Of a stretch of 64,000 bases of DNA, positions 6,735 to 47,517 are shown in pieces (the stretch's first letter is position 1; every line of letters starts with the position of its first letter). The stretch lies in assembly GCA_016712345.1 (NCBI GenBank), contig JADJRH010000002.1:136466-200465 (forward strand), written 5' to 3'. The notes under the pieces were generated by a model that was not told the DNA's origin, did not search any database, and saw only the letters and a program-made list of their open reading frames with translations. The stretch comes from Polyangiaceae bacterium. GTDB taxonomy: Bacteria > Myxococcota_A > Polyangia > Polyangiales > Polyangiaceae. Position numbers and translations under genes: made by a program.

Positions 6735-8147
6735 ATGCCCACAGATCCCGAGGTTTTTGGCCAATTTTTGTTGGTGCAGCCGCTCGCCCAGAGCGCCATG
6801 GCCCAGGTGTTTCTTGCCGTTCGATTGGGAGACACATCGGGCAGGCTCCTCGTTCTCAAACGTCCACCGCTCGGTGAACGACCCTCAGGCCGGGCGGCGC
6901 AGGCTCTATTTCGCGAGGCGGAAGTGCTTTCTCAGGTGCGAGGCGCCGGCATCGTCACGCTCGAAGCCGCGGGAGAAATTGCGGGGCTGCCGTACGTTGC
7001 CGTGGAGCGCCTGCGGGGCCAAACGCTTGCCGGCCTGCTTGAACGCAACGCCCCGTTGCCCAGTGAAAGTGTGCGCATCATTGGTAAAGACATCGCGCGC
7101 GCGCTGGCAAAACTTCACGCCGCCGGCTGGGTACACCGCGACGTAACCGCATCGAACATTTTTGTCGACGATGCCGGCGAGTGTACACTTATCGATTTCG
7201 GCTTGTGCGCCCGAGTCGGCGACGAACGCGGCGGCGACATTGTGGGCACGCGGGGTTACGCCGCGCCCGAGGCGGCAACGGCGGGCGCCGCACACCCGCC
7301 CCGCGATGTGTACGGGCTCGCTGTGTGTTTGGCTGAAGCGGCTCTCGGAAGGCGGCTGTTTCAAGAAGCCGGTTTGGTCGAGGCGGCCGGGCGCGAAATT
7401 CCACCACGTGTACACAACTTGGGCCGCGAGATCGACGGCCTCGTCCGCGCCCTCGATCGCGACCCGAACGCGCGGCCAACGGCGGCTCAATGGGCGGAGA
7501 TGTTTGCGACCGGCGCCTCCCGTGAAGTGCTCGCAGAGCGTGTGACGCTGTTCACCTCCGGCGCCGACCCTTCGAGTGTACCCACGCACTCGGCGCCTCG
7601 AAATACCTTGGAAGCGGAGCCGGTGATGACGGCGCTCGCTCCAATGGCCGCTCCCGCCCAGGCACCCGTTCTCACTCCCACGGCCGCGATGCCAAGTGTT
7701 TCAGGCGACGGCGCTGAGAAGATCCCAACGCTTCGCGAGGCGCCGATTGTACACATTCCGCGCCAGACGCCTTTGAACGTTGATACATCGCGACCGCCGC
7801 CCACATTGCGTACACGTTCGTCGGCGCCTGCGATCGTCATTGCGCTGGTGTTCGTTGTGGCGGCTCTCGGAGTGGGGTTTTTTGTCGGTCGTTTTTCGCA
7901 GCGCGGGCGCGGTCCGTCGTTTTCTATCGACGGCAACGTTTCAAAGCGAACCGATGTGTACCTCGACGGGAGAAAGCTGACGTTTGCCGACGGCGTGGCG
8001 ATGCCTGTGTCGCCGGGCAGTCATGCGTTGACGCTCGTGACGCAAAAAGGCGCGCGCCGTGAAATTCCCTTTGCGGTGAAACCCGGGGAACACTTGGTGC
8101 TTGTGCTCCCCGAACGCGCGCCCAATGCACCGGCCGACGACCCGTAA
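6735..8147 (+). CDS. Membrane-anchored Ser/Thr protein kinase (start taken at MPTDPEV)
   Basis: HRDVTASNIFVDD, DFGLCARVGD and GTRGYAAPE motifs. A Pro/Ala-rich linker is followed by one TM helix (APAIVIALVFVVAALGVGFFVG) and about 90 aa of extracytoplasmic tail. Confidence 0.85.
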   Translation: MPTDPEVFGQFLLVQPLAQSAMAQVFLAVRLGDTSGRLLVLKRPPLGERPSGRAAQALFREAEVLSQVRGAGIVTLEAAGEIAGLPYVAVERLRGQTLAGLLERNAPLPSESVRIIGKDIARALAKLHAAGWVHRDVTASNIFVDDAGECTLIDFGLCARVGDERGGDIVGTRGYAAPEAATAGAAHPPRDVYGLAVCLAEAALGRRLFQEAGLVEAAGREIPPRVHNLGREIDGLVRALDRDPNARPTAAQWAEMFATGASREVLAERVTLFTSGADPSSVPTHSAPRNTLEAEPVMTALAPMAAPAQAPVLTPTAAMPSVSGDGAEKIPTLREAPIVHIPRQTPLNVDTSRPPPTLRTRSSAPAIVIALVFVVAALGVGFFVGRFSQRGRGPSFSIDGNVSKRTDVYLDGRKLTFADGVAMPVSPGSHALTLVTQKGARREIPFAVKPGEHLVLVLPERAPNAPADDP

Positions 8148-8216
8148 CGCGCGATGTTTCGGCGTGAAAAAAGTGCCAACACGCGCATCTGCCCAATGTG
8201 CTAAGCGGGGGGCGTT

Positions 8217-8236
8217 GCGGGGGGTCGGCCCCCCGC
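8217..8236 (+). other. GC-rich perfect hairpin (GCGGGGGG-tcgg-CCCCCCGC) between the kinase and the EamA gene. It has no U-tail, so its function is uncertain.
   Basis: 8-bp inverted repeat with a 4-nt loop, read directly from the sequence. Confidence 0.4.
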
Positions 8237-8240
8237 CCCA

Positions 8241-9197
8241 ATGACAAAGGACACGCGTTCAAGCGGGTTTGTGACAGTGATTCTCACCCTGACAGGGTGG
8301 GCGAGTGTGCCTCTGTTTCTGCGGCATTTTGCAGAATCGATTGATGCGTACACATCCAACGGCATTCGGTACGGGTTTGCCGCATTGCTTTGGCTGCCGG
8401 TGCTTCTTTGGAATGGCAAAAAAGGCACCTTGCCAAAGGGCTTGTTGCAAAAAGCTGTTATGCCCAGTGTTTTCAACTGCCTCGGTCAAGTGGCATTTGC
8501 GCTCGCCCACTACCGCACGCCGCCCGGCCTTTTAACGTTTGGCATGCGCACCCAAATTGTCTTTGTGGGACTCGGTGCCGCGGCCCTTTTTCCAGCCGAA
8601 AGAAGGCTCCTGCGCTCACCGCAATTTGTTGCTGGAATGGCCCTTGTTTTCGGCGGCAACGTTTTGATGGCGCTGCTCGGCAATGTCTTTCAAGGGGCCA
8701 GCGGAGAAGGCTTCTTGCTGGCAGTGCTCGCGGGTGTACTTTTTGCCGCCTACGGCCTGAGTGTGAGGCGCAATATGCACGGTCAGCCACCGATATTGGC
8801 CTTTTCTGTAATCAGTCAGTATACGGCTCTCGGGATGGTGACACTTATGCTCCTGTTGGCCAAAAATAGGGGCATGGTTGTGTTGAGTTTGCCCCGGGGC
8901 GAAATAGCCTTGTTGCTTCTTTCGTCGGTGATCGGGATCGCGCTCGGCCACGTGTTTTATTACGTGAGCATTGCGCGACTCGGCATCACCGTGACTGCCG
9001 GCGTGATTCAGCTTCAACCGTTCTGCGTTTCAGCGGCTTCGTATTTTCTTTTTGCCGAGCGTCTCACAGCGGGTCAGTGGCTCGGCGGTCTTGTGGCGCT
9101 GAGCGGTGCGGTACTCATGCTCATCACCCAACACCGCTTGCTTCGAGTGACCACCACTTCAGATGTGTCCACTGCGCCGACATCTTCGCGCGCGTGA
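8241..9197 (+). CDS. EamA/DMT superfamily transporter (10 TM)
   Basis: Two repeats of five hydrophobic helices typical of EamA-domain permeases. The hydropathy pattern is read from the translation. Confidence 0.7.
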
Positions 9198-9229
9198 TTC
9201 AGCGCGATCGGCGTGGCGATCGTGCTATC

Positions 9230-10684
9230 GTGCGACCTCTCCGCGTGACGACGACGCCCAAACCCACAGGCAGTGCCCCCGCGGGATCCAAGCGCATTCC
9301 CGTAACCGAGGTGATTGAAGCCACCACGGGCCCGACCGTTCGGCGCATTCGAAAGCTGCGCGTTGAGATCGTCGACGCGCGCGAAGACCGCGACAAAAAC
9401 GCGGTTTTTACGTTTGCTCAAGATGAAGTTCGCATCGGCTCCAGTGAAGAAGCCGACGTGCCGCTCGCCGATGCATCGGTGTCGCGTGAACACTTGGCAG
9501 TGAGGCTTTCAGCCGCGGGGTATGCGCTGCTTGACCTCGGATCCACCAATGGCACGTTCGTTGGCGATCTGCGCATCGAGCGCGTCACGATCGCGGAGCC
9601 AACCCTCATTCGGCTCGGTCAAACAGTCCTGCGTCTCGTTCCGCTTGCCGAGTCGGTGGAGCAGGAGATCTCGCCGCGCGCGCGCTTCGGTCGCATGCTC
9701 GGACAAAGCGCCGCAATGCGTGAAACGTTTGCGTTGCTTGAGCGTGTGGCGGCAACCGATCTCACCGTTCTTCTCGAAGGTGAAACGGGCACCGGCAAAG
9801 AACTCGCAGCCGAAGGACTTCACGAGAGCAGTGGGCGCAGCGGTGACTTCATCGCCGTAAACTGCGGAGCCATTCCACGCGAACTTTTGGAAAGTGAGCT
9901 TTTGGGCCACGAAAAAGGCGCATTCACGGGCGCCGACAGACCTCGGCCCGGCGCGTTTGTGGCAGCTGATCGCGGCACCATTTTTCTCGACGAAGTGGGT
10001 GAATTGCCGCTCGACATGCAGGCCAAGCTCCTTCGCGTTCTTGAACGCCGCGAGGTAAAGGCTGTTGGATCCGATCGCGCGCGGAGCGTGGATGTGCGGG
10101 TGATTGCCGCCACAAATCGATCGCTCGCGCGTGAAGTTGCCGCCGGGCGTTTTCGCCAAGATTTGTACTTTCGTCTCGCGGTTGTTGTGGTTCGCATTCC
10201 GCCGCTTCGAACACGCGCCGGTGATGTACGCATGTTGGCCGAGCACATTCAGGACGAGCTTGCTCGCAAGCGTTCGGCCGCAGGTTTGCCACCGCTCGCA
10301 CGTCTCGACGAGCGCGCCATGCTCATGCTCCTTCGCTACGATTTCCCAGGAAACGTGCGTGAATTGCGAAACGTTGTGGAGCGCTGGGCGGTGCTTGGCG
10401 CGGTGGGTGCACCCGGAGATCCCGCGGCGTGGGCGGGCGGCGCGGGCGGCGGTGCCGAAGCAGGTGTACACATGGGTTCGGGCGGCGATGTGGATCGTGC
10501 GCTCTTGTCGCTGCCCTATCACGAAGCAAAAGATGAGTGGGTGGAGCGCTTTGAGCGCGCGTACCTCACCACATTGCTCGAACGCTGCGATGGAAACGTT
10601 TCACGTGCGGCGCGGGAAGCGGGCGTTGATCGGCGCCACGTGCAGCGCATGATGACGCGCTTTGGAATGAAGGGCGGCGATTAA
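9230..10684 (+). CDS. Sigma-54-dependent transcriptional activator with an N-terminal FHA domain (GTG start near 9230-9245; the ORF-track start at 9077 overlaps the upstream gene)
   Basis: FHA core ([23 protein letters not shown]). AAA+ sigma-54 interaction domain ([29 protein letters not shown]). C-terminal Fis-type HTH ([23 protein letters not shown]). Confidence 0.9.
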
Positions 10685-11045
10685 AGCCCCTGGCACGTCA
10701 ACCGTGACGCGCACTCGGCGGGCGGGGCGGTGTTAAGCCGCCGTGTGTACACTCAATGGTGAGCGTCGCCGCGCGAGAAAAACCAGCCGAGAAACGCCGC
10801 GAGCGAGATCGCACCAAACAGACCGCCGAGGAAAACCGGAAAGGACATGGTGCGGACAATACCCAATCTTTTATTGGAAGGGGAAGCCTCGACGGAAAAC
10901 TGCGGAGCCGTCCGCAGGTGCGGATGTGCTACCGCACCCTAAATCAAAGGGATTTCTCGAACAAACGAGCGATCGAGAGTCGGCACGCAGCGTGCAATTA
11001 CGCAATCCCGTAAGCCGCACAACCTGCCGCGGCAAGGAGACTCAA

Positions 11046-11567
11046 ATGATGTTCCGCTCGATCGTTCGCCCCCTGTTCGTTGCTCTCTCGCTCGCGTTCG
11101 CTTCTTCCGTTGCTGCGCCCGCGATGGCCGACGACGCCGGAGACAAAACGGCTGAGCACGGCAAGGGGAAGGGACACGGCAAGGGCAAAGGCGAAAAAGG
11201 CAAAAGTGATGATGCGAAGGGTGAAAAAGGAAAAGGAAAAGGAAAGGGACACCGCCGCATCGAGCTGCCGATCAGCGCCGACAAGTTCACCAAGGCGGTT
11301 GATAACCGACTCGATCGCGCCAAGACAAAGCTGACGAATGCGCTTGCGAAGAGCAGCCTTTCTGAAGCCGAACGCAAGCAGATCTTGAAGGACTTTGACA
11401 CCGGTGCCGACGCGGTGCGCGCTGCGACCAAGGCGGCTGTGAAGGACGGCAACGTTTCAAAAGACGAGGTTAAGGCGGTTCGCACAGCGGTCCGCAACTT
11501 GAAGACCTCGCTTGAAAGCAAAATGCCCAAGAAGGCTGAAAAGGCTGAAAAGGGCAAAGACGTCTGA
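11046..11567 (+). CDS. Secreted Lys/Gly-rich low-complexity protein (173 aa) with a signal peptide
   Basis: ATG at 11046 is preceded by AAGGAGA. The sequence MMFRSIVRPLFVALSLAFASSVAAPAMA is a Sec signal. GKGKGHGKGKGEKGK repeats are followed by a coiled-coil-like region. Confidence 0.6.
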   Translation: MMFRSIVRPLFVALSLAFASSVAAPAMADDAGDKTAEHGKGKGHGKGKGEKGKSDDAKGEKGKGKGKGHRRIELPISADKFTKAVDNRLDRAKTKLTNALAKSSLSEAERKQILKDFDTGADAVRAATKAAVKDGNVSKDEVKAVRTAVRNLKTSLESKMPKKAEKAEKGKDV

Positions 11568-11715
11568 GTACACACCAATCCAAACGGCGCGTCCTCCACC
11601 CATGCAAACGCGGCTCGTGCAATGCGGGCCGCATCCTTCAGCCGAAACCCTTATGTGTACACATCCGCGTCTCTATACCGAGTGTACACCATGAACTTGT
11701 CCCCCTTCGCTCCGT

Positions 11716-12468
11716 TCAGCTCCTCTCCAAATGTTCGCGACGCCTTTCATTGGCTCTTCGCAACACTGTGCGCGCCAAAAGAAACATTACCGTTCCCACA
11801 TGCCATGGGCGCACGCCGCTCGCTTCACCGCGGTAAACGGGGCGCACGGGCACCTCTCCAATAGACAATCCGCGCCTTGCGATCTCACCCAACAAATCGT
11901 TGGGATAACCGTACCGAGGCCACAGCCGGTCGAGATCCAAAGCGTCGATGGCCCGCGCCGAGATCGCTGTGTACCCACACTGACTGTCGCTGAGCTGCGG
12001 CTTCCCAATCGCGAGCCCGGTGAGTCTTCCGAGCACGTGCCCGGCGGCAAGCCGAGCAAGCGGCATTGAACGGTACACATCGGGATGTGTGAGCCGATTG
12101 CCTTTCACGTAGTCGTGGGTTTGCTGAACGATAGGTTCAACAACGCGATACAGATCGGCCGGGTGCATTTGTCCGTCGCCGGCCATCACCGCAACGGCCT
12201 CGGCTCCACGAGCGCGCGCCGTTCGATACCCGGTGGCGATCGCCGCGCCCACGCCGCGATTTGTCTCGTGTCGAACAATTTCCAGTCGACCGTCGGGCAG
12301 CGAATGCGCAACGCGCGACGTGGCGTCGGTCGACGCGTCGTCCACCAAAATGATGTGGTCCACAAACTCTGGAATCGTGGACACGGTTTCGGCGATCCAC
12401 GCTTCTTCGTTATACGAAGGGATCACCACCGCCACTTTGGACCCGTTCAGCACGGCCTTTCCTACCAC
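11716..12468 (-). CDS. Family 2 glycosyltransferase (polyprenyl-phosphate/dolichyl-phosphate hexosyltransferase-like)
   Basis: VAVVIPSYNEE...LVDDASTDAT GT-A signature and the DXD region. Confidence 0.85.
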   Translation of the reverse strand: MVGKAVLNGSKVAVVIPSYNEEAWIAETVSTIPEFVDHIILVDDASTDATSRVAHSLPDGRLEIVRHETNRGVGAAIATGYRTARARGAEAVAVMAGDGQMHPADLYRVVEPIVQQTHDYVKGNRLTHPDVYRSMPLARLAAGHVLGRLTGLAIGKPQLSDSQCGYTAISARAIDALDLDRLWPRYGYPNDLLGEIARRGLSIGEVPVRPVYRGEASGVRPWHVGTVMFLLARTVLRRANERRREHLERS

Positions 12469-12603
12469 GAGTCAAACGCCGCCGGCACGAGGGCCTTGGT
12501 GCTTCGAAATGTGTACACATGTTGAAGCGCATTGTGTACTCTCAAAAATAGCTCTTTGCCCGCCATTTTTAAGTGCGGTACGAGCGCGTCGGAACCCCGC
12601 CGC

Positions 12604-13221
12604 ATGAGTGAGCCGCAAACAAAGCCGCCGCCTGTCAAACGCCGCACGTTGGTGATTGGCGGCGCTGTGCTCGGCGCGGTCGCCGCCGTTGGCCTCGTGT
12701 GGCGCAACGTGGTGGCGTTTCCACCCGACACAACTCCCGAGGGCGCCTACCTGCGAATTACCGCCATGTTGGGTGACGGCGACGCGCGCGGATGTTTTGC
12801 GTACCTCGAAGACGCGGCCCAACACGCTGCGTACACAATTCGCGATTATCGAAAAAAAGCCGCCGATCGAGTCCAATCAACGTACCCCGAGCCCGAGCGC
12901 ACACGTCTCTTGGATCAGTACCGCGCGTTTGCCGAAGCACCCGACGGTGCCGATGTTTGGGTGCTGATTGCCGAGCAAAAAGGGTATGTCGGCCGGCTGA
13001 GACGCGACCTCTCCGGCATCGCCAAAGTTGAAGTCAACGCCGATCGCGCCAGCATTGAAACAACTCTCGGCACGCGCTACGCGTTTCGGCGGCGGCAAAA
13101 CGGAATTTGGGGCTTGTCGATGTTTACGGCCGACCTGGTTGCCGAAGCCGAGCGAGCGGCGCGCGACTACGAGGTAGTAGACAAAGCGGCTTCAGACTAC
13201 GAACGCGTCCGCACACGATAA
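12604..13221 (+). CDS. Hypothetical membrane-anchored protein
   Basis: Single N-terminal TM (RRTLVIGGAVLGAVAAVGLVW) followed by a soluble domain with no recognisable motifs. The start is chosen at MSEPQ. Confidence 0.5.
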   Translation: MSEPQTKPPPVKRRTLVIGGAVLGAVAAVGLVWRNVVAFPPDTTPEGAYLRITAMLGDGDARGCFAYLEDAAQHAAYTIRDYRKKAADRVQSTYPEPERTRLLDQYRAFAEAPDGADVWVLIAEQKGYVGRLRRDLSGIAKVEVNADRASIETTLGTRYAFRRRQNGIWGLSMFTADLVAEAERAARDYEVVDKAASDYERVRTR

Positions 13222-13278
13222 AACCGATCCAATCAACCGATGTGATGTGATATTCACGTCTCGGAGGAGGACGTTTTT

Positions 13279-13677
13279 GTGGCCGAGCCAATGACCCCTC
13301 AAGAGCGCGCGCGCCAAGCTGCGATCACCGCCGCACTTGCCGAGCTTCAAGCTGAATACGCAGAGAGTCTTCCAAACCTGGTCTCCGATCTCAACGCCGC
13401 CGGTGCAGCGGCGTGCGCCGCGGGTGATTCCACCGCGCTCAGGCACCTTCAAACCCTTGCTCACAGAATGCACGGTGCCGGCGGTTCGTACGGTTTCCGA
13501 GGCGTGAGTTTGGCCGCCGCCGAACTTGAAGTGTTGCTGGCCAATCAAGAGCAGGCCAAACGCCCGTTCGATGCGGTGTTTGCCGCAAAAATCCGCGCCG
13601 CGCTTGAAGAGGTTGAAGCGGTGACATCGCACGAGCTGGCGGGTTTTGCCGCGGCCCGCGCCGGCAGCGCGATCTAA
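13279..13677 (+). CDS. Histidine phosphotransfer (HPt) domain protein
   Basis: HRMHGAGGSYGF matches the HPt phospho-His motif HxxKGxxxxxG. Size is about 130 aa. Confidence 0.7.
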   Translation: MAEPMTPQERARQAAITAALAELQAEYAESLPNLVSDLNAAGAAACAAGDSTALRHLQTLAHRMHGAGGSYGFRGVSLAAAELEVLLANQEQAKRPFDAVFAAKIRAALEEVEAVTSHELAGFAAARAGSAI

Positions 13678-13733
13678 CGTTTTGCCAATTGATTGCGAAA
13701 ACGGCCGATGCGCCGTACACCGTGGGGCGTCGC

Positions 13734-14741: not shown

Positions 14742-14825
14742 ACTGAACCTCCCCAGGAGTTAACTTCAGCCGCCTCGCAACGACCTGAAATGTCTCGATG
14801 CCTGACACGTCGTAATCAACATGGA

Positions 14826-14900
14826 GGCACGGAGATCACGGAGATCCACGGAGTTTTTTTGTATTTCAGGCTGAGCTGCAAAGCGTTTGCAGTTTTTGGG
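14826..14900 (+). mobile_element. Partial copy (A) of a MITE-like element: three tandem CACGGAG heptamers plus a T7 run, followed by a short hairpin
   Basis: The string cacggagatcacggagatccacggagttttttt is the reverse complement of the right end of the element at 22612-22784. No opposing terminal repeat is seen here. Confidence 0.55.
14874..14898 (+). terminator. Rho-independent terminator-like hairpin (CTGCAAA-gcg-TTTGCAG plus TTTTT) downstream of the FGE-domain gene
   Basis: Perfect 7-bp stem followed by a T5 run, read from the sequence. Confidence 0.55.
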
Positions 14901-14922
14901 CCGCGCACGGTACACTTCTCCC

Positions 14923-18518: not shown

Positions 18519-18533
18519 CCCATGTCAAGCCCG

Positions 18534-18935
18534 TCAAGGCTCTTTGGTGTCTTCCGGCGGCTTTGGCCCAAACAAAGAAGCGATCACCGCGCCCACGGGT
18601 AGACTCATATACCCAGCCACAAGCGCCACACCTGACACCGCTTCACTCTTCATCAAGAGCCACACGCCACCCAGCAAAAAAAACAACTTGAGCACCGCGA
18701 TAATTGCCCACGGCGCCGTGTTGCCCTTTTTGGTAAGAAACGCTTCGACAATGCGCGCCAAGACAATCAGGTTGACGAGCGCAATCACCGCCCCCGCAAA
18801 TACCCCCAACCCAAATCGAATGCCCTCCACCACCGCGGCAATGACCGAAAAGGCAAGACCCGTTGCGGCCACATATTTGAGTGCGGCTTTTAGAGTGGAG
18901 TCATTCGCGGCGGCGTCGTCTTCTTTTTTAGACAT
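18534..18935 (-). CDS. Small 4-TM membrane protein, AtpI-like
   Basis: 133 aa with four hydrophobic helices. It sits directly after the AtpZ-like gene. Confidence 0.4.
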   Translation of the reverse strand: MSKKEDDAAANDSTLKAALKYVAATGLAFSVIAAVVEGIRFGLGVFAGAVIALVNLIVLARIVEAFLTKKGNTAPWAIIAVLKLFFLLGGVWLLMKSEAVSGVALVAGYMSLPVGAVIASLFGPKPPEDTKEP

Positions 18936-18936
18936 G

Positions 18937-33370: not shown

Positions 33371-33381
33371 GGCGGGCCAAT

Positions 33382-38226: not shown

Positions 38227-38379
38227 TCGAGTCCTGGACCTGGGCGGCGATGGTACCTTCTGTGCATGGACCATCCAAGAAGTTTCCCTTTGCGATCGGA
38301 GCGATCGCGAAATCTCAGGGAGCTTTGAGCCCACCGGCTGTGCTCCACAAAACACCCGGCCCGCTAATTTGGCCCTGCA

Positions 38380-41300
38380 ATGGACGAGGACGTATCTACC
38401 GGCCTCCCACTCGAAATGGCCGTTTCGCTCCTTGCCCCTCGAACCCCGATCGCCCCCGAAAGTGACGGCGAAGCCGCGCCTTTGGCCGAGCCGGAACCCA
38501 AGCCCACGCGAAAAAGGCCTTCCCCCAAACCTAAAAGTACGGCGAACGACCTTCCACAGGGCAAACGCACGGGCGCAAAGTCTCCCCGCTCCACCAAGAG
38601 CGCTGCCGACGAAACCGCGGCAAAGTCGGTCGGCGATTCTGCCGCCGACAAGCCCGCCCCGACGCCCGCTCCCAAAGGTGTACACGCGTACGCCCGCGAA
38701 GCCGCCGCGCTCCTTCTCATCGCGTCGGCGCTCTACATCAGCCTCGCGCTTGCATCGTTTAAAGCCGATCCGCTGCGGATCGAGGTGACCGGCGCCGATT
38801 GGGTCGGCCCCGTCGGTGCCGCATTCGCCGGCCTTCTTGTTGAAACCGTCGGCGCGTGCGCGTGGCTCGTGCCCTTGGATCTCGCTCTTTTTGCAACGCC
38901 GCTTCTCCAAGGCCGCCCTGCCAAAGTGACGTTTCCGCGCATCGCGGGCGATCTCGTTGTGCTCGTTGTTGTCTCCGCGCTCCTTCACGTGGCGTTTCCA
39001 AAAACAACCGCGTTCGGTGCCATGCCGCTCGGCGGTACCTCGGGCGAACTCTTCGGCGAAGTGATGCGCGCGCTCTTTTCGACGCTCGGCTCGTACATCG
39101 TCGGCCTCACCGTTGTGTCGCTCATTCTCATCGGCCGCGCGGCGTTTTCGATCATCGACTGGGCGCAGCGCGCCGAACGCCGCGCGCGCGCGCTCGGCGA
39201 AAAAGGTCACGGTGGTTTGCGAGCGCTTGTCGGCGCGTGGGATCAAGCGCGCGCGCTCGATGAACAACGCCGCGAAGAAGAGCGCAAAGCCTCGGAGCCG
39301 GTGATCACCGAAGCGTGCGACGAAGCGATCTTCGCCGCGCTCGGCGATGAATCGCCGATGCCATTTCCGCGCGTCAAACCGGTGTTGCCGGCGAAGGCGA
39401 AAGCCGCGCCGCTCGTTGTGAACAACGAGCGCGCGGCGTTCGCCGCGCCCGCCGCGATCGCTCCAACCATCGCGATCGCATCGCCGTCGCTCGCATCGCC
39501 GTCGCTCGTCGCCGCGCCGAAAGTCGCCGCGCCGATCGCGATCGCAACGCCGCCGGTGAACGTACCGTCGATTGCCGCCGCGTTTCCGGAACCGCCGCTT
39601 GCCGACGCCGATGCCGAGCGGCGCGCGCGCGCCGAAGCGCCCACACCTTCGCCGGTGGTTGCGGCGGCGGCCCCTGAAAAGAAGCGCGGCCGCAAAAAGA
39701 ACGATGCTGCAAACAACGCCGCCGCACCGATCGTCGAAGCCGCCGCCGCGCCGATCATCAACGCGATGGTGGATCTCGCTGCTCCGGCGGTCGGCGCGCG
39801 CGCGCCCGACCTCGATCTCAAGAGCGACGAAGCGATCGCCTTCGCCGCCGATTCGGGCGACGCCGCCGATTTGGACGATGCAAACGCCGAAGCGTCGTTT
39901 GTCGACGAAGCGGCGGCCGGCGCTTTCGAATTGGATCTGACGGGTGATCGCAACAACGTTTCGCGGAGCGGCGAGGCGGCGCCGAAAGCGGCTCCGCCGC
40001 TTTCGGCGCCGCCCGCCGCGGTTCGCGCGCCAATTGCCGCAGCGCCGGCCGCCCCCGTTGCGCCCGCCGAGGCCGAAGTGAAAATTGTGGACACTTCCGC
40101 CGCGCTCGAAGCCCAAAAGCCTTCGATCTTGGTGAAAATTGTTCCAGCGATCGGCGAAGGCTTCCGCCTGCCGTCGCCCAGCCTCCTCGATGAAGCTCCC
40201 GGTGGACGTGTACACATCGACGAAGACCAACTCAAACAGACAGCCGTTCAGCTCGAAAAGGTGCTCGCCGACTACGGTGTGAACGGCAAGGTTGAAGAGA
40301 TTCACCCCGGGCCCACCGTCACAACGTTTGAAGTGTCGCCCGCCGCCGGCACCAAAGTTTCAAAAGTGGCCAGCCTTGCCGACGATCTCGCGCTCGGCCT
40401 TTCACGCAAAGTGCGCATTGTGGCGCCGATTCCAGGCAAAAACCGCATCGGCTTTGAGATCCCCAACGAGCGCCGCATGCCGGTTGTCATGCGCGAACTC
40501 GTTGAAGACAAACGCTTCTTGGACATGAAAGCGCCGCTGCCGTGTGTACTCGGCCGCGACATCATCGGCGCGCCCTATTTTGCCGACCTCGCGAGCATGC
40601 CCCACGTGATCGTTGCGGGCGCCACCGGCGCGGGCAAAAGCGTCGGCCTCAACGTCATGCTGGTGAGCCTTCTTTATCGGCGCACGCCCGCCGAACTCAG
40701 GCTCCTCATGATCGACCCCAAGGTTGTTGAGCTTGCTCCTTTCGACGGCATTCCGCACATGCTTTTGCCTGTTGTCACCGACATGAAACAGGCATCCAAC
40801 GCGCTCAAATGGGCCGTTGATGAAATGGAGCGCCGCTATCAACTCTTCGCCAACGCGGGCACGCGCAACATCACCACGTACAACGGCTGGGCCGAGCGTG
40901 TACGCAAAGGCGAAATCAAAGCACCCAAAAAAGCGCTGCCGAAAACGGTTACGGCAGTGGCTCCCGATGGCACCGACGTGGACATTCCCGCCTCGGCCGA
41001 CGACCCCGAGTTGCCCGAAACGCTTCCGTGGATCTTGATCGTTGTCGACGAATTCGCCGACTTGATGATGCAGCAGGGCAAAGACGTTGAAGCGAGTGTT
41101 GCGCGCCTCGCCCAGAAAGCGCGTGCCGCCGGCATGCACGTGATCTTGGCCACGCAGCGGCCGAGCGTCGACGTGATCACCGGCATGATCAAAGCCAACT
41201 TCCCCACGCGCATCGCGTTCCGTGTCGCTCAAAAAGTCGACAGTCGCACCATCCTCGACGAGCAGGGCGCCGAACACCTCCTCGGTCGAGGCGACATGCT

Positions 41301-41667
41301 CGTGAAGATGAACGGCTCCAACGACACGCGCCGCGTGCAATGCCCGTTCTGCTCCGAAGAAGAAGTGCAGCGCGTCACCGACTTTTTGCGCCTGCAGGGC
41401 TCGCCCGTTTACGACGAAAACATTCTCAAGCCGCGTGACGAAGACGGTGAAGGCGGCGATGTGGCCGACGACGAACTCGACGCAATGTACGACGCCGCGG
41501 TGCGCGTTGTTGCCGACACGCGGCGCTGTTCCACATCGTGGCTTCAGCGCAAGCTTGGCATTGGCTACAATCGCGCCGCCAAAATTGTCGAAGCCATGGA
41601 AAAACGAGGCGTCGTCGGCCCGGCAAACGGCGCCAAAGATCGCGAAGTCCTCATCGGCTCCATCTGA
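38380..41667 (+). CDS. ftsK: DNA translocase FtsK
   Basis: N-terminal TM helices and an Ala/Pro-rich linker. Motor domain with Walker A GATGAGKSVGLN, Walker B ILIVVDEFADLM and ATQRPSVDVITG. C-terminal gamma winged-helix domain (STSWLQRKLGIGYNRAAKIVEAME). Confidence 0.95.
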   Translation: MDEDVSTGLPLEMAVSLLAPRTPIAPESDGEAAPLAEPEPKPTRKRPSPKPKSTANDLPQGKRTGAKSPRSTKSAADETAAKSVGDSAADKPAPTPAPKGVHAYAREAAALLLIASALYISLALASFKADPLRIEVTGADWVGPVGAAFAGLLVETVGACAWLVPLDLALFATPLLQGRPAKVTFPRIAGDLVVLVVVSALLHVAFPKTTAFGAMPLGGTSGELFGEVMRALFSTLGSYIVGLTVVSLILIGRAAFSIIDWAQRAERRARALGEKGHGGLRALVGAWDQARALDEQRREEERKASEPVITEACDEAIFAALGDESPMPFPRVKPVLPAKAKAAPLVVNNERAAFAAPAAIAPTIAIASPSLASPSLVAAPKVAAPIAIATPPVNVPSIAAAFPEPPLADADAERRARAEAPTPSPVVAAAAPEKKRGRKKNDAANNAAAPIVEAAAAPIINAMVDLAAPAVGARAPDLDLKSDEAIAFAADSGDAADLDDANAEASFVDEAAAGAFELDLTGDRNNVSRSGEAAPKAAPPLSAPPAAVRAPIAAAPAAPVAPAEAEVKIVDTSAALEAQKPSILVKIVPAIGEGFRLPSPSLLDEAPGGRVHIDEDQLKQTAVQLEKVLADYGVNGKVEEIHPGPTVTTFEVSPAAGTKVSKVASLADDLALGLSRKVRIVAPIPGKNRIGFEIPNERRMPVVMRELVEDKRFLDMKAPLPCVLGRDIIGAPYFADLASMPHVIVAGATGAGKSVGLNVMLVSLLYRRTPAELRLLMIDPKVVELAPFDGIPHMLLPVVTDMKQASNALKWAVDEMERRYQLFANAGTRNITTYNGWAERVRKGEIKAPKKALPKTVTAVAPDGTDVDIPASADDPELPETLPWILIVVDEFADLMMQQGKDVEASVARLAQKARAAGMHVILATQRPSVDVITGMIKANFPTRIAFRVAQKVDSRTILDEQGAEHLLGRGDMLVKMNGSNDTRRVQCPFCSEEEVQRVTDFLRLQGSPVYDENILKPRDEDGEGGDVADDELDAMYDAAVRVVADTRRCSTSWLQRKLGIGYNRAAKIVEAMEKRGVVGPANGAKDREVLIGSI

Positions 41668-41734
41668 GGCCGCCCCGCGGACTCACGCTTCGCAACGCGC
41701 CTGGCGCGCTTTTCCAACCGAACCGTCCATTTCA

Positions 41735-41895
41735 ACACGGAGTCACGGAGTACACAGAGGACACGGAGTTTCTTTGATTGTCGGGCCGCAATGGGTACAC
41801 AATAACCAACGTTCTCGACCTGACGCCGTGCAAGCCGATAGCAGCCTAAAGTACACAAAACTCCGTGAACCTCCGTGTCCTCCGTGCCTCCGTGT
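41735..41895 (+). mobile_element. MITE-like element copy C, flanked by CACGGAG-repeat terminal inverted repeats, between ftsK and the next gene
   Basis: Left end cacggagtcacggagtacacagaggacacggag. Right end ctccgtgaacctccgtgtcctccgtgcctccgtg, which is its reverse complement. The core is homologous to copy B. Confidence 0.65.
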
Positions 41896-41979
41896 TTCAT
41901 GCGACGTGTCAGATGCCCCGACGGTACAGGTCGTCGCGAGACGCTTCAGCCACCGAACTATTGAACGCGGCAGCGAAGC

Positions 41980-43494
41980 TTGAGAGCTTTTTTTAAAGCG
42001 TTTTACAGCGACAAGCCACTTTTTTTGGCGGCCCTTTTTCTCGCCTTCGTCGGCGTTTTCCCGATCGTTGCAACCGACATTCTCCCGTTCATCGACTTGC
42101 CTCATCACGCCGCGCTTTCACGCCTTTGGTGGGATGTTCTGTGGGGCAAGCCGGAAGCGACCAAACACTACGTCATCGACTGGATGCCGATGCCTTATTG
42201 GTCGATCTACGTTCTTTTTGCGCCGCTCATTCGCATCTTCGGTGCACTTCACGCCGCACGCATTTTAACGGCGTTTTGCGCGCTGTGTGTACCTTTGGCG
42301 GTGCTTCGTTTTCGGCACGCGCTCGGGCGATCGATGGCGCCGGGCCTGCTCGCGTTTGTGATCGTCGTCGACTTCAATTTGTCGTTCGGCTGGCTCAACC
42401 ACGTGCTCGGTGTGGCGCTTGCGCTGTTTGCGCTCGCCGCTCTTGTCAAAGCCGACTCACCGCGTCGGGCGCTCTCCGTGTGGCCATGGGCCGTGTTGCT
42501 CGCCTTCACGCACGTGTTGCCGTTCGGCTTTTTCGGGCTCGCCGCCGCGCTTCTCACCCTTGTTCGTCCGGGCCCAAAAAAGAAGGCGTTTGCAACGCTC
42601 TTGGTTGCCTTGAGCCTTCCGTCGCTCGCGCTTGTTCCGTGGCTTGTGCGTACACTTTCTCAAGCCGCAGTCGGCAAACCGTCGGGGGCTGTGTACTCAT
42701 CGTTCGCCACGCGCGTGACCCACTTGTTTGAGTACACATTGGGCGGCGCGCAGGCGTCGGATCGGGGCATGTTGGCCGCCGGACTGCTCTTCACATTCCT
42801 GATCGTGCTGCCGCTCGCCGCGCTTCTTTTGCCGCGTGAAAAAGCCACTCCGCTCGATCGCGTTTCGCGCGCCCCGTTTGCCGCGGCAACTCTTCTCTAC
42901 TTCACATTGCCGCTCAGCGTGGCTCGCCCCGTGGAGCACTGGGGCACGTACCCGCGTTTCGCGTCGCTCATGCTGCTGGGTGTACTCATCGCGGTCAAGC
43001 CGGCAATCTCGGCTCGGCGGATCTTTGTGTACACAATTCCCGCCGCCTTGCTCGGCTTGTGGCTTTCGGTTGAAATAACGATTTCGTTTCGCCGTTTTTC
43101 GCGCGACGCCGCAGCATTTCACGAGATCGCGGCTCACGTTCCAGAGGGGGCGTCGCTCCTTCCGCTTGCGTACCACACCGCTTTTGAAGGCACGCGCCAC
43201 CGCATGGGCGAGTCAATCCATGCGTACATCACGGCCGACACGGGCGGGTACAACCCGTACCTCTTTGGCCAACCCACAAACCCGGTCCACTACATCAAAC
43301 ATGCCAAACTGCCGGCGCCAGAAGGCTGGGGCCGCCGCCCCGAAACCTTCAGCATGCTGATTCACGGCCAGCGTTACGCGTACCTGCTCGTGATCGGGCG
43401 AGCCGACGACCCCGTGCCGGAGTGGATCGGCCTTGCGCTTGAGATCGAAGCTGATCGCTACCGCCTCTACAAAATTTTGGAGCCGCGCCGTTAG
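41980..43494 (+). CDS. Polytopic integral membrane protein (about 12 TM), possibly a GT-C-like glycosyltransferase
   Basis: Hydropathy only, with an early conserved-looking DxxPFIDLPHH loop. No confident family assignment. Confidence 0.5.
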   Translation: MRAFFKAFYSDKPLFLAALFLAFVGVFPIVATDILPFIDLPHHAALSRLWWDVLWGKPEATKHYVIDWMPMPYWSIYVLFAPLIRIFGALHAARILTAFCALCVPLAVLRFRHALGRSMAPGLLAFVIVVDFNLSFGWLNHVLGVALALFALAALVKADSPRRALSVWPWAVLLAFTHVLPFGFFGLAAALLTLVRPGPKKKAFATLLVALSLPSLALVPWLVRTLSQAAVGKPSGAVYSSFATRVTHLFEYTLGGAQASDRGMLAAGLLFTFLIVLPLAALLLPREKATPLDRVSRAPFAAATLLYFTLPLSVARPVEHWGTYPRFASLMLLGVLIAVKPAISARRIFVYTIPAALLGLWLSVEITISFRRFSRDAAAFHEIAAHVPEGASLLPLAYHTAFEGTRHRMGESIHAYITADTGGYNPYLFGQPTNPVHYIKHAKLPAPEGWGRRPETFSMLIHGQRYAYLLVIGRADDPVPEWIGLALEIEADRYRLYKILEPRR

Positions 43495-43555
43495 CCAAAA
43501 GCGTGCCGAGCTTGTAAAGGAAAATCGTCACAAGGCCTTTGACTTTCGGAACGCA

Positions 43556-43801
43556 ATGCTTCAAACACGACCCGTGATGCTTGCGGAAGAGCACCGCACG
43601 CGGCTTATTGGCGAAATTGCCAAAGTCCTTCAAGACGAGTGCATGCCTGACGACGCGCGCGCCGCGGGGCTCGTGCTCATCGGGTGGCTCGCGCGCCGCA
43701 TGCCCGGTGAAACGGCGCACGCCCTCGGCGTTGAAGAAATGCGCGCCGCCTGTGCCCACCGCCAAAACGGATCGCGCAGCGCCTCCAAAGCGTCTCGGTA
43801 A
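43556..43801 (+). CDS. Small hypothetical protein (81 aa), tentative
   Basis: An ATG-initiated ORF in the 500-bp gap before the Pro-rich protein gene. It looks protein-like, unlike the overlapping antisense ORFs. Confidence 0.3.
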   Translation: MLQTRPVMLAEEHRTRLIGEIAKVLQDECMPDDARAAGLVLIGWLARRMPGETAHALGVEEMRAACAHRQNGSRSASKASR

Positions 43802-44004
43802 GCCGGCTTCAACGGCGGTTCGCCTCGCCGTTTCTCCGAGCGACCCACCGTTCGTGTGTACACAAGAACCGCGCACTCCGCGCCGTTCAGTGCGCATCCC
43901 GGCCGAAACACCGCGTCCCGCCGGATCCAGCCGCAGCCCCCTCGCCCGAATACATTCGCAAAAAAGTCGGGTTGCCCGCGGGCCTGTGATACCAAGAAGC
44001 ACCG

Positions 44005-47000
44005 ATGGCAGAGCGGGCGGTTGACCTCCCGAAGCCGCAGCCCGACGACGCCGAAGACGTCGTGGATTGGCTGTCGACCGCCCGGGCCTTGTGGGCTCGC
44101 GGCGAACGCGGAGATGCGCTCGTGTGGCTGCGTCGCGCCGCCGAGGCCGCAGCCCAAGCCGGCCAACCCTTCAGGGCTTCTGAAATTGGGATGTACGTCA
44201 CGGCGATCGAAGAAATGTTCGCCGAGCCAACCCCCAAGCCGGCCGACACCGTGCGCCCGGCCGCCGCAGATCGCCCGCCGCACGACACACTCGTCGATCC
44301 ATCCGAAGCGTTCGGTGCGCTCGCCGGTGAAGTGTTGCGCAAGCAGCTCAACACCATTGAGGTCGATCTCGATGACACCTTGGCCGAAGACAGCTCGCCC
44401 GATCTCTTTCAAGAAACAGCGGCGCTCGGTCCGGCCATGGTCGCGCGCGTCGCGCCTCCTTCTGAAGCCAAAGGCAAACCCAAAGCGCCACCGCCGGCTC
44501 CGCGTGATGTGACGTCGCCTCTCGCCGCTCAAGCGCCGGCGCCGCGTGAAGTGCAGCCGCCCAAAGTGATCGTGCAGGTTGCCAATACGGCCGCGGCACC
44601 CGCGTCCTCCCCACCCAAAAAATCTGCCTCTGTGCGGGCTCCCGCGGCAAAACCGTCGTCGCCGCCGCCTGGATTTTTGCCGGAGCTTGCGCCGCCGCGC
44701 GGCGAAGACGGTGAAGAAACAACGCTCGTGACGGGTACACTTCGCGGCGCACTTCAAAAAGCAAACGCGGCACCCGCATCGGTTGGAACGTCGCCGCTCG
44801 CTTCCACCCCGGCTCCTCCGCAGGTGCGCGTTTCGTCCTCGGCAATGCCGCCGCCTCCTCCTTCAATGGGGTCACCGTCGCTCAATGTGCCGCGGCCTCC
44901 GCCAACACCTCGGGAGGACACTTTTTCGGCAATGCGCAGCGCATCGACGGCACCCGCTGTGAAGCCGCCGAAGCCATCGAGCGCACCGCCGCCGCCGCCG
45001 TCCAACACGCCGCCGCCCGCGCGCCAGCCGCTGCCTTCTTGGTCCGGTGTTGGGCTCACCGGCAATGTGCGTACACCCACGCGCCGGCCACCCAAGCCGC
45101 CCCGAACGCCGATCTTAGATCCGTGGGCCGAAGAAGAGATCGCCGCCGCCCGGCCTCTTCCGCCCATTCCTCCCGCGCCCAAAACCGGCACCGAAGAAGT
45201 GGTTGTGGTGCGCGCGCGATTTCCCTCCATTCACGAAGACGACGATGTGTACACATCGGCCGCGCCCCTTCCCGCCGCGCTTCGTCGACAGGCGCCGGCC
45301 GCTCCACCTGCGCCCCCGGCTGCTCCACCTGCGCCCCCAGCCGCCGCGCCCTCATCCCCGCAAGCCGCCGTGCCGCCCGCGCCGCCCGCGCCGCCCGCGC
45401 CGCCCGCACCTCCGCCTCCGCCTTCCGTCGCGACTCCGCAGGCCGCCGCACCTTCCCAAGCGGTTGCGCCGCCACCACCGGCTCCGTTCGCTCCGGCCCC
45501 GTCGGCTGTGCCTCCCGCTCCGACTGTATACAGCTCCACACCAATTCCGCCTGCCCCGCCGGCTCCCAAGCCCCGCACACCCGTTCCCGGCCGACTGCCC
45601 AACACCGCCGACATTGTTCCCAAGGCCGATATCGCGCTTGCAGACGCTGCTCCCGCCTCGGTGCCACCGCCCAAAACCGATGTTGCGCCGAAGTCGGTGC
45701 CACCGCCCAAAGGGGCCAATCGCAAGTCGGCGCCACCGTCCAAATCGGATGTTGCGCCCAAATCGGTGCCGCCGCCCAAAGAGGCCAATCGCAAGTCGGT
45801 GCCACCGCCCCGGCCGGCCGCCGTGGTCGTCAGTTCTGAAACTCCTGTGCTCGCGCCCGGCAATGTTTCCAAACCCGAGAGTGCCGGTACAGAAGTAAAA
45901 CTCCCTCCCGATTCTCCAACGCTGCCCACCGGCAAGTCGTTTATCGAAAAACTGCGCCCGTCATCCACAGGCAGTATTCAAAGAGCGCCGGCCGCGAAGC
46001 CCTCGGCCCCGGCTTCCGCGCCGCCGTCCAAAGCTTCCACTGCCGCTGCCCCCGCCCCGGCGCCGCCACCTCCACCTTCCCAAGCTCAGCCCGTATCCAC
46101 GCCACCCGCAAAAGCATCTGTACCGGCGGCCCCCGGCTCTTCGCCGCCCCCGAAAATGCCTTTTGCCCCCGCGGCATCTCCCAAGTCGGTCGCGCCCGCT
46201 TCCATTTCCGCCGTCCCCGCATCCAAACAAGCGCCCACCTCCGCGGCAACACCCGCCAAGTCGGCGGCGCCCAAACCTGCACCCATGAGCCGGCCCTCTC
46301 CGTCGGCCTCGTCGGTTGTGGCCGCGGGCCCGCCGTCACCTGCCGCAGCGCCCTCAGCCCCCAAACCTGACTCCACCCCCACTTCCGTCGCCGCACCTAC
46401 CCCTGCGGCTCCAAAAGTGCCGCGCCCGCTCACTGTGCGCCCACCGCCTCCAGCCGCACCTGACACTGGCAAGTTGACACCCGACGCTGGCAAACTGACG
46501 CCTGACACTGGCAAGTTGACACCTGACGTAACCAAGTCCACACCTGATATTGCCAGGTCGGCATCCGACATTGCCAAGTCGACACCTGACATACCCAAGT
46601 CGGGATCTGACATACCCAAGTTTGACCCGGCCCGCGCCACTCTACCCATGATGCTAGAAGTGGAGCCCATGCCGGTGGACGTACCCTCCATGCGCGCAAC
46701 CCTACCCATGCCGCTGGAGCTGCCCAAGCAAATTGAAGCCTATTTTGAGGCCCAGGCGCAAAACCCCGTTCTTGTGGAAGGCGTTCGACTTGACCAGGTA
46801 GACCTCTTTGAAGGATTGCCCCGCCCCGCGCTCGAAACGCTCGCCTCCGCCGCGCGGGTAGAACAGCTCGGGCTCGACGAAGAAACGCGCGGCTTCGGCG
46901 CGGCGCTCTTGGTATCCGGTTCCGCTGCCTTGTGCGCCACATTTGTGGATGTCCCCGCTCATTGGGCCAAACCCGCCGAACTCCTTGTTGCCCGAGGCTC

Positions 47001-47517
47001 CCTCTCCGAGGCCATCGCCGTGCGCGTTGTGGGCCTTTCCGACGGAACAACGGTGCTCACCTGGTCGGGCACCGTTGTAGAAGATATCCTCGGCGCCCAC
47101 GTCGGCGGGGATGCTCGTCGCCGCGCCCGGGGTGACCGCCTCCAGGCCGAGGTCGGCGCCACCATGGGCCCCATGGGTGAACTCCCCGACGAGGCCCGCA
47201 AAGCCCTCTTCGAAGAGTTGAACCTCAAAAAACTCTCCCCGGGAGAAATCTGGTTGGAAGACGGTGCCCCCGCCCCCGCGGTTTGCGTTGTCGGCGCCGG
47301 TGAAATTGAAACCTACGGCCCCATTTCTGAAGAAACCACCGAAGCGTTTGAACCCGGCGGCATTGTCTACCCTGACCTCCTCGTTGTGGGGGGTGAAGCC
47401 TCCAGCTCCGCACGAGCCGGAAGCGGCGGCGCGCTGGTGCTTTTTACAGATCGCAACGGCGCTGCCAAAATGTGTACACACGTGCCCGACTTGGCCGCTC
47501 GCCTCCGGGGCGAGTAG
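44005..47517 (+). CDS. Large Pro/Ala-rich protein (1170 aa) with internal tandem peptide repeats and a C-terminal region resembling two cNMP-binding-like domains
   Basis: N-terminal ~70-aa helical domain. Long PAPPAPP, VPPPK(T/G)xxxxKS and (D)TGKLTPD repeats. C-terminal DLFEGLPRPALETLASAARVEQLGLDEE and LFEELNLKKLSPGEIWLEDG segments look like degenerate Crp-type cNMP-binding folds. Confidence 0.65.
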   Translation: MAERAVDLPKPQPDDAEDVVDWLSTARALWARGERGDALVWLRRAAEAAAQAGQPFRASEIGMYVTAIEEMFAEPTPKPADTVRPAAADRPPHDTLVDPSEAFGALAGEVLRKQLNTIEVDLDDTLAEDSSPDLFQETAALGPAMVARVAPPSEAKGKPKAPPPAPRDVTSPLAAQAPAPREVQPPKVIVQVANTAAAPASSPPKKSASVRAPAAKPSSPPPGFLPELAPPRGEDGEETTLVTGTLRGALQKANAAPASVGTSPLASTPAPPQVRVSSSAMPPPPPSMGSPSLNVPRPPPTPREDTFSAMRSASTAPAVKPPKPSSAPPPPPSNTPPPARQPLPSWSGVGLTGNVRTPTRRPPKPPRTPILDPWAEEEIAAARPLPPIPPAPKTGTEEVVVVRARFPSIHEDDDVYTSAAPLPAALRRQAPAAPPAPPAAPPAPPAAAPSSPQAAVPPAPPAPPAPPAPPPPPSVATPQAAAPSQAVAPPPPAPFAPAPSAVPPAPTVYSSTPIPPAPPAPKPRTPVPGRLPNTADIVPKADIALADAAPASVPPPKTDVAPKSVPPPKGANRKSAPPSKSDVAPKSVPPPKEANRKSVPPPRPAAVVVSSETPVLAPGNVSKPESAGTEVKLPPDSPTLPTGKSFIEKLRPSSTGSIQRAPAAKPSAPASAPPSKASTAAAPAPAPPPPPSQAQPVSTPPAKASVPAAPGSSPPPKMPFAPAASPKSVAPASISAVPASKQAPTSAATPAKSAAPKPAPMSRPSPSASSVVAAGPPSPAAAPSAPKPDSTPTSVAAPTPAAPKVPRPLTVRPPPPAAPDTGKLTPDAGKLTPDTGKLTPDVTKSTPDIARSASDIAKSTPDIPKSGSDIPKFDPARATLPMMLEVEPMPVDVPSMRATLPMPLELPKQIEAYFEAQAQNPVLVEGVRLDQVDLFEGLPRPALETLASAARVEQLGLDEETRGFGAALLVSGSAALCATFVDVPAHWAKPAELLVARGSLSEAIAVRVVGLSDGTTVLTWSGTVVEDILGAHVGGDARRRARGDRLQAEVGATMGPMGELPDEARKALFEELNLKKLSPGEIWLEDGAPAPAVCVVGAGEIETYGPISEETTEAFEPGGIVYPDLLVVGGEASSSARAGSGGALVLFTDRNGAAKMCTHVPDLAARLRGE

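Follow-up and report, generated by a model that had tools for sequence, protein, structure and literature searches.

What causes one palindromic word to accumulate in a bacterial chromosome? The question is raised by 64,000 nucleotides of a Polyangiaceae genome (contig JADJRH010000002.1; hereafter, the window), in which the octamer GTGTACAC occurs 25 times. An earlier note on this DNA had reported about 25 sites against about one expected and had compared them with HIP1, the palindrome of cyanobacteria. According to our analysis, the word is genuinely enriched, is young and was made by point substitution.

Abundance, placement and extent of the word

An exact search of the window, the 64 kb of one genome to which all word counts refer, returned 25 GTGTACAC sites, or 3.9 per 10 kb. 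The window has a GC content of 59.5%, not the ∼62% given earlier; at this value, base composition predicts 0.84 sites, in line with the previous estimate of fewer than one per 64 kb. In 100 dinucleotide-preserving shuffles, the octamer occurred 0.28 ± 0.60 times, with a largest count of 3. Markov models of orders 1, 2 and 3 predicted 0.3, 1.0 and 1.3 sites, respectively (two-strand counts halved); orders 4–6 were uninformative, as the motif's own sub-words dominate them. In coding DNA, 18 sites were present, compared with 2.2 ± 1.2 (largest of 300 shuffles, 6) when synonymous codons were permuted within each gene, a null that keeps the protein sequence and the gene's codon usage. The same null yielded 26 copies of GTGTAC, of which 96 were observed. 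Together, these data confirm that the enrichment of GTGTACAC, ∼20–90-fold depending on the null, is real. We found no literature report of hyper-abundance of GTGTACAC or TGTACA in any bacterium.

Most coordinates listed previously were right; those at 31550, 31722, 43856, 45247 and 62055, each previously one base out, are corrected here. The statement that related 7-mers were far more numerous was only partly right: TGTACAC had 61 copies on both strands, 50 of them within the 25 octamers, and TGTACGC had 23. The sites, each GTGTACAC unless described otherwise, are:

7181–7188: in a Ser/Thr kinase gene
7408–7415: in the same Ser/Thr kinase gene
10464–10471: in an FHA/sigma-54 activator gene
10745–10752: at the predicted GTG start of the open reading frame (ORF) 10743–11567
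11655–11689: octamer pair, starts 11655 and 11682 (27 bp apart), non-coding, between convergent genes; the first forms the 12-mer ATGTGTACACAT
12509–12539: ATGTGTACACAT, with octamer at 12511, then half-site TGTGTAC at 12534; divergent intergenic (promoter) region
16411–16418: in a TPR protein gene; motif-poor segment
18251–18258: context CGATGTGTACAC; in a TPR protein gene
21008–21015: non-coding, flanked by the S8 peptidase gene and rph; same sequence in the independent contig L081
25701–25708: in an O-methyltransferase gene
29167–29174: in a Cys-rich gene (weak MXAN_6577-like match)
29467–29474: in the same Cys-rich gene
29602–29609: non-coding
31541–31634 (+): 94-bp array in intergenic DNA, with convergent genes on either side; besides the octamer at 31550, it has five more TGTAC[AG]C, all in one orientation; same sequence in the independent contig L187
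31564–31634: tandem repeat GATGTGTACGCAATA, 15 bp × 4.7 copies, part of the preceding array
31722–31729: context TTGTGTACACAA; 3′ end of a UbiB/ABC1 kinase gene
33968–33975: in a YkuD (L,D-transpeptidase) gene; the only site also found at the orthologous position in relatives
34054–34061: in the YkuD gene; relatives read GTGCGCGC or GTACGCGC
38678–38685: in ftsK
40208–40215: in ftsK; relatives read GCGTCCAC or GCGTGCAG
43027–43034: context TTGTGTACACAA; in the hypothetical gene 41980–43494
43856–43863: non-coding, upstream of gene 44005–47517
45243–45258: perfect 16-bp palindrome CGATGTGTACACATCG, octamer at 45247; in gene 44005–47517
47472–47479: 3′ end of gene 44005–47517; the relative L001 reads GTGCGCCC
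62055–62062: in pglW; sole octamer of the BREX type 2 (BREX-2) island

Eighteen sites (72%) were genic. The remaining 7 of the 25 fell in the 12.3% of bases that are non-coding (P = 0.03), a ∼2.7-fold higher density, and 25 of the 121 GTGTAC half-sites were likewise non-coding (P = 0.006). Non-coding clusters comprised the octamer pair 11655/11682, the sites at 12511/12534 and the six-site array at 31541–31634. The coding octamers were distributed over all three frames, in which they read as V-Y-T, x-V-H and C-T, and the non-palindromic half-sites occurred in both orientations and in five of six classes of frame and orientation. In motif-rich segments, there was one half-site per 300–500 bp. 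The use of all frames and both orientations, the non-coding sites and an excess beyond codon usage and protein sequence bear out the earlier view that the effect operates at the DNA level. Gene calling based on GC at third codon positions (GC3) was unusable here, GC3 being only ∼0.6.

The enriched unit is largely the half-site (A)TGTGTAC. On both strands, GTGTAC had 121 copies against ∼29–33 expected, TGTGTAC had 69 against 6.9, and ATGTGTAC had 28 against 1.4; TGTGTACACA occurred at 9 sites against ∼0.06. Among 201 GTAC cores, the left GT half was present in 57, the right AC half in 64 and both in 25, compared with 18.1 under independence (odds ratio 2.1, P = 0.03). The octamer is therefore about as frequent as two half-sites combining independently on either side of GTAC would make it, and its ∼20-fold excess approximates the square of the ∼4-fold half-site excess.

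Among octamers with one mismatch, enrichment was detected only at position 2/7 (GTGTACNC: 13, 17 and 14 copies against 1–3 expected), the one-transversion forms being as enriched as the one-transition form; variants at positions 1/8, 3/6 and 4/5 were not enriched. The information profile is the palindrome a-T-G-T-G-T-A-C-A-C-A-t, strongest at G.GTAC.C, with positions 2/7 and 0/9 each at ∼50–57% and base preference reaching 0/9 and −1/10, beyond the alternating core. The flanks of the 25 sites had in common only a T at −1, an A at +9 and, less strongly, an A at −2 and a T at +10. The full profile of the word is a 10–12-bp palindrome, aTGTGTACACAt, and its graded information content looks like the profile of a protein-binding site.

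Origin of the sites within one lineage

We carried out the comparison across related genomes that the earlier note had called for, using the best 80 FtsK matches among the Polyangiaceae of the GTDB representative collection (1.41 Mb; best FtsK identity 92%). These matches placed the window in the Polyangiaceae, and exact protein matches assigned it to a 738,087-bp contig of an NCBI metagenome-assembled genome (proteins MBK8255110–MBK8255137, locus tag IPK82_). This genome was itself missing from the 80 matches, possibly because it did not pass GTDB's quality filtering. These relatives contained 5 copies of GTGTACAC, or 0.04 per 10 kb compared with 3.9 in the window. In the closest of them, which have 88–92% identity in FtsK and UbiB and a GC content of 69–72%, the word was absent save for one conserved pair, GTGTACAC-N15-GTGTACAC, in ykuD (3974–4004 in L001, 9328–9358 in L183 and 7483–7513 in L184). 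This pair encodes RVH...GVYT of a conserved peptide, with the rare codon GTA for Val in the first copy. Of the two copies, the window retains one, at 33968, the only one of the alignable octamer sites common to window and relatives; no word-bearing sister genome was among the genomes compared. Overall, the expansion of GTGTACAC is specific to the window's lineage.

The relatives have a GC content of 68–74%, compared with 59.5% in the window, where GC3 is ∼0.6 and GC at first codon positions (GC1) is ∼0.68. This profile suggests that this branch of the Polyangiaceae has recently undergone a strong GC-to-AT shift. The window's 27–46-kb block is syntenic with L001, L035 and L183, in which the orthologous positions read GCGTGC, GCGCGC, GTGCAC, GTGCGC and similar words. 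The precursors already alternate purine and pyrimidine, and mostly C>T and G>A transitions turned them into the word, as in the synonymous change of CGC GTG CGC to CGT GTA CGC. At codons overlapping the word, the amino acid of the relative was retained 71% of the time, compared with 75% over all codons, and in 30 of 49 amino-acid-conserved codons at the word, the codon itself was altered synonymously. These data demonstrate that the sites were made by point substitution, mostly synonymous transitions from GC-rich words, and not by a mobile repeat.

A metagenome scan with the 16-mer CGATGTGTACACATCG returned 101 stretches, nearly all with a single site and none matching the window; only L094 looked motif-rich. 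A scan of viral contigs with a 14-mer gave chance matches only. L094 (Ga0326734_1001935, a metagenome contig of 64% GC) and L202 (IMGVR_UViG_2974670810_000001, viral, 38% GC) carry 26–34 GTGTAC per 10 kb and are unrelated to the window. In L202, the orientation of GTGTAC switches blockwise, which may reflect gene strand together with a codon effect.

Alternation of words along the window

The earlier note had reported a single GTGTACAC in the BREX island and had taken the depletion as a mark of recent acquisition. The count was borne out: region 47518–64000 (25.8% of the window) contained 1 of the 25 octamers (binomial P = 0.0057) and 8 of the 121 GTGTAC half-sites (P = 5e-8). The interpretation holds for the island and is weakened by a second depleted segment, at 14.6–27 kb, which contains core genes. 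In L001, what follows the flanking gene downstream shows no relationship to the window, and the best PglX homologue is only 65–66% identical; both observations fit an island. No donor was found for the BREX-2 island, PglX having no close homologue. The segments and the island are:

0–5.3 kb: mixed word content; GTGTAC 11, GGTAGA plus GTCAGGT 8
5301–14600: motif-rich; GTGTAC 22, octamers 7, GGTAGA or GTCAGGT 1
14601–27000: motif-poor; GTGTAC 12, GGTAGA 28 plus GTCAGGT 8 (36 together)
27001–46300: motif-rich; GTGTAC 39, octamers 12, GGTAGA or GTCAGGT 4, two of them ancestral
46301–64000: motif-poor; GTGTAC 8, GGTAGA 38 plus GTCAGGT 11 (49 together); spans the 3′ end of gene 44005–47517 and the BREX-2 island
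48202–64000 (−): BREX type 2 island with brxHI, brxD, pglZ, pglY/brxC, pglX and pglW, the last running past the window end

Two companion words were over-abundant. The first, (ATG)GGTAGA, is represented by 75 copies of GGTAGA against 11 expected at Markov order 2 (71 against 19 in coding DNA under the codon shuffle) and by 48 copies of GGGTAGA (45 against 4.2 in coding DNA, same null). GGTAGA occurs in both orientations, in five reading frames and with rare codons (GTA, AGA, CTA, TCT), and it is concentrated where GTGTAC is scarce, at 14600–27000 and 46300–64000, as well as at 1–5300. The second, GTCAGGT/ACCTGAC, has 25 copies against ∼4 (Markov order 2) and 18 against 5.4 (codon shuffle). It is co-distributed with GGTAGA, for example at 22587–23443 and 48251–60773, in several frames, both orientations and with rare codons; four copies (46365–46590) stem from a 21/42-bp tandem coding repeat. 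The word classes segregate along the window, with 59 runs compared with 95.9 expected (runs test, z = −5.4). Both words are missing from the relatives too, and the GGTAGA sites of 14.6–27 kb are new in the window's lineage.

In the depleted 14.6–27-kb segment, the core genes for an S8 peptidase, rph and Ham1 are syntenic with the relative L186. Synteny with GCA_964268215.1 covers ATP-synthase protein I, Ham1, rph and the S8 peptidase as well as a large hypothetical gene, and the segment is therefore not simply foreign; protein identities of 91%, 81%, 80% and 74% to this genome are in the range seen in the GTGTAC-rich block. The switch of words at ∼46.3 kb falls within a conserved gene, and the first BREX gene follows 1.9 kb later. 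The window is a compositional mosaic, not a host genome plus one naive island. One possible route to the mosaic is homologous recombination that brought in islands, along with the core DNA beside them, from a sister lineage accumulating other words; domain-wise organisation of the chromosome is another possible route, and a strain-collapsed assembly may also be its source. Related lineages are known to carry different dialects of uptake sequences. By a broader proposal, which we put forward as speculation and consider improbable, the chromosome would be a mosaic of 10–20-kb blocks saturated with different words (ATGTGTAC/GTGTACAC in some, GGGTAGA and ACCTGAC in others), either domains marked by different proteins or sister-lineage dialects of self-recognition (uptake, repair, defence) exchanged by homologous recombination. 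All three words are missing from relatives at ∼90% protein identity, and if the proposal were true, comparison with them could identify the word-making genes, a question still open for HIP1.

Several further features were noted. Asymmetric and 6 bp long, GGTAGA may be likened to the sites that PglX enzymes of BREX systems target. It is densest at 14887–18518, more so than anywhere else in the window, in overlapping genes for an AAA/NACHT-like ATPase and a 769-aa TPR protein; this pair is without counterpart at the syntenic locus of L186 and may be an accessory insertion. The mixed-word segment holds a gene for a 1301-aa Ser/Thr kinase (768–4673) with AAA_16 and TPR domains, whose kinase domain matches the PADLOC PD-T4-6 and mad6 models and may be defence-related. 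At 34900–36400 and 45300–45800 there are GC-rich (∼69%), low-complexity coding repeats (GGCGGCGG, 18/54-bp and 36/69-bp tandem units), and because of these repeats GCGCGCGC- and CGGCGGCG-type octamers are abundant.

Candidate explanations and known systems

With a confidence just short of even, we favour biased fixation of the word driven by a sequence-specific protein, in the manner of HIP1 or of uptake sequences; the protein and the biased fixation are both inferred. In this mechanism, the hyper-abundant word of the lineage has the half-site (A)TGTGTAC, and GTGTACAC is its fully symmetric form. Ancestral GC-rich alternating words (GCGTGC, GCGCGC, GTGCAC) were turned into it, chiefly through transitions in non-coding DNA or at synonymous sites. 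A sequence-specific protein of the lineage would recognise the word, probably as a dimer, and this recognition would bias which substitutions fix. The bias could arise through a methylation- or repair-linked ratchet, as proposed for HIP1, or because DNA that bears the word is taken up and recombined preferentially, as with uptake sequences. DNA that has been resident for long would become saturated, and recent arrivals such as the BREX-2 island would stay without the word.

Several observations weigh against biased fixation. The second depleted segment, 14.6–27 kb, carries vertically inherited core genes, so that time of residence cannot by itself account for where the word is found. The octamer is only 1.4-fold above the half-site product, which a purely mutational process would also fit. 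Within the window, no methyltransferase, repair or uptake gene able to recognise the word was found: the sole DNA methyltransferase is PglX, located in the depleted BREX-2 island, and NCBIfam and Pfam scans of the unannotated window ORFs yielded no DNA-binding or methyltransferase candidate. Finally, no word-bearing sister genome was found, and the data comprise 64 kb of one genome.

A serious if unlikely alternative is that context-dependent mutation produced the word, as a neutral by-product, while GC dropped from ∼70% to ∼60%. Transitions keep purine-pyrimidine alternation, and words of the GCGCGC type would decay to the GTGTAC type with neither a reading protein nor selection. The GC difference between relatives and window, the GC3 and GC1 values, the predominance of C>T or G>A between orthologous precursors and word, and the near-independence of the half-sites are all consistent with this account, as are the similar totals of G(YR)3C octamers (∼29.5 per 10 kb in the window and ∼24 per 10 kb in the relatives). 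By contrast, the outcome among these transition-equivalent octamers is very uneven: GTGTACAC has 25 copies, GTGTACGC 17 and GTGTGTAC 14, whereas GTGCACAC/GTGTGCAC has 1 and GTATACAC and GCACACAC have 0. Mutation alone also sits poorly with base preferences at 0/9 and −1/10, outside the alternating core, with position-2 transversion variants as enriched as the transition variant and with same-orientation arrays in non-coding DNA. Nor would a genome-wide mutational spectrum predict that neighbouring segments of one contig differ strongly in density.

We regard as rather improbable that the word is the selected binding site of an abundant protein (nucleoid-associated, chromosome-organising or a very broad regulator), kept for the bound protein's function and not by a repair or uptake drive. 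A palindromic profile of graded information content would suit such a site, as would the non-coding enrichment and clusters, including paired sites flanking a glycosyltransferase gene and the six-site array. Density that varies at a 10–20-kb scale recalls the 10–90-kb periodicity of HIP1 (PMC5861425), and the pair GTGTACAC-N15-GTGTACAC is conserved in relatives without the expansion. However, this pair sits in the ykuD coding motif (RVH...GVYT) and may exist for protein reasons, 72% of the octamers are genic and in all frames, the density of half-sites is far above that of any ordinary regulon, and no candidate protein was identified in the window. A dispersed repeat family (miniature inverted-repeat transposable element, MITE, or repetitive extragenic palindrome, REP), a local amplification or an assembly or base-calling artefact is very improbable. 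The tandem array at 31564–31634 (15 bp × 4.7) does supply several half-sites, but it holds just 1 of the 25 octamers. In favour of an artefact, metagenome-assembled genomes with locus tags in the style of IPK82_ may stem from long-read sequencing of activated sludge. The earlier note had singled out one repeated element family as the finding that would undo the DNA-level reading; outside ±2 bases, the flanks of the sites have no sequence in common, and no repeat family was found. The independently assembled contigs L081 and L187 (run SRR11674035) are 100% identical to window positions 19758–21800 and 30947–34792, and the sites are therefore not consensus errors; this check covers 5.9 kb with several sites, on short contigs that span no segment junction. 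Differences from relatives fall at synonymous positions, GGTAGA gives no in-frame stop (0 of 29 coding-sense copies in the TAG frame), and the words one substitution away from the octamer are all too scarce to have been precursors that were miscalled. We judge repeat family and artefact refuted by the unrelated flanks, the identical independent contigs and the synonymous differences.

HIP1-type palindromes have been studied almost only in cyanobacteria, where they are ancient and phylum-wide; their origin is therefore hard to trace, and the function of HIP1 is debated between methylation-linked repair, nucleoid structure and DNA uptake. Conservation of sites is the test that showed selection for HIP1. 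The word described here is young, is confined to one Polyangiaceae branch and has word-free close relatives, and the ancestral state of individual sites can be read as in a natural experiment. Contrasting the gene content of this metagenome-assembled genome with that of word-free relatives such as GCA_964268215.1, JAWKRE01 (ABC1.6) and JAXLYM01 (STL-MYX13) could point to the responsible protein. Word density might also serve to date acquired DNA, as it does for the BREX-2 island, with the caution that a core-gene segment is depleted too. The main value of the system lies in the word's youth, the word-free relatives available for comparison and the alternation with other words.

Two types of known element were rejected as identities of the word. 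REP and MITE families share at least 20–30 nt and are mostly intergenic; here, conservation ends within ±2 nt and 72% of copies are genic. Words of the Chi or KOPS type are non-palindromic and strongly strand-skewed along the replichore; GTGTACAC is palindromic, and its companion GGTAGA is without consistent orientation.

The earlier analogy with HIP1 (GCGATCGC) was apt, in that both are enriched palindromic octamers, dispersed and acting at the DNA level. HIP1 and the alternate HIPs are likewise enriched tens-fold, have been dispersed by substitution over non-coding DNA and all frames of coding DNA, vary between lineages, show position-specific mismatch enrichment and are uneven in density at the 10–90-kb scale. 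HIP1 is 15–300-fold enriched, and its 10–90-kb density periodicity has been interpreted as nucleoid structure (PMC5861425). Its single-mismatch variants are enriched position-specifically, for which a ratchet of methylation and mismatch repair was proposed (PMC4390886); preferential uptake and recombination have recently been argued for it (bioRxiv 10.64898/2026.06.24.733823). Scarcity of HIP1 in foreign DNA has reportedly been used for detecting horizontal transfer (PMC3497702). In the 64-kb window, GTGTACAC is at least ∼15-fold above composition and Markov expectation and is dispersed singly, in all coding frames and in non-coding DNA, outside any longer repeat, as expected of a HIP-type word. 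It differs in having a GTAC core (AT-containing) in a GC-rich genome of the phylum Myxococcota and in being very young, absent from relatives at 88–92% protein identity. The half-site is dominant here, the tolerated mismatches are at 2/7 rather than 1/8, non-palindromic over-abundant words fill the word-poor segments, and no cognate methyltransferase was identified within the window. The word is not HIP1 itself: it reads GTGTACAC, its host belongs to the Polyangiaceae, and GCGATCGC is only ∼2-fold enriched in the window (13 against ∼5.6).

Very short patch (VSP) repair by Dcm/Vsr in E. coli is similar in that sequence-specific repair can alter, by substitution, how often a short word and its neighbours occur. 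The known effects of Dcm/Vsr on word frequency are less than 2-fold, not tens-fold, and there is no vsr or C5-methyltransferase gene in the window.

The DNA uptake sequences (DUS) of Neisseriaceae and uptake signal sequences (USS) of Pasteurellaceae occur once per ∼0.5–2 kb in both orientations, in all frames, with non-coding excess and pairing; they originate by point mutation and are under-represented in recently acquired DNA. The word shares this pattern, with approximately one copy per kb, equal orientations and depletion in recent DNA. Dialects of uptake sequences differ among related lineages (see also PMC1939737), and the other words of the depleted segments would fit import from a lineage with another dialect. 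Unlike the palindrome described here, known uptake words are non-palindromic, 9–12 nt long and tied to identified competence receptors. Overall, GTGTACAC behaves like a HIP-type palindrome in the Myxococcota, with a word for which we found no earlier report, and has several population-level features in common with uptake sequences.

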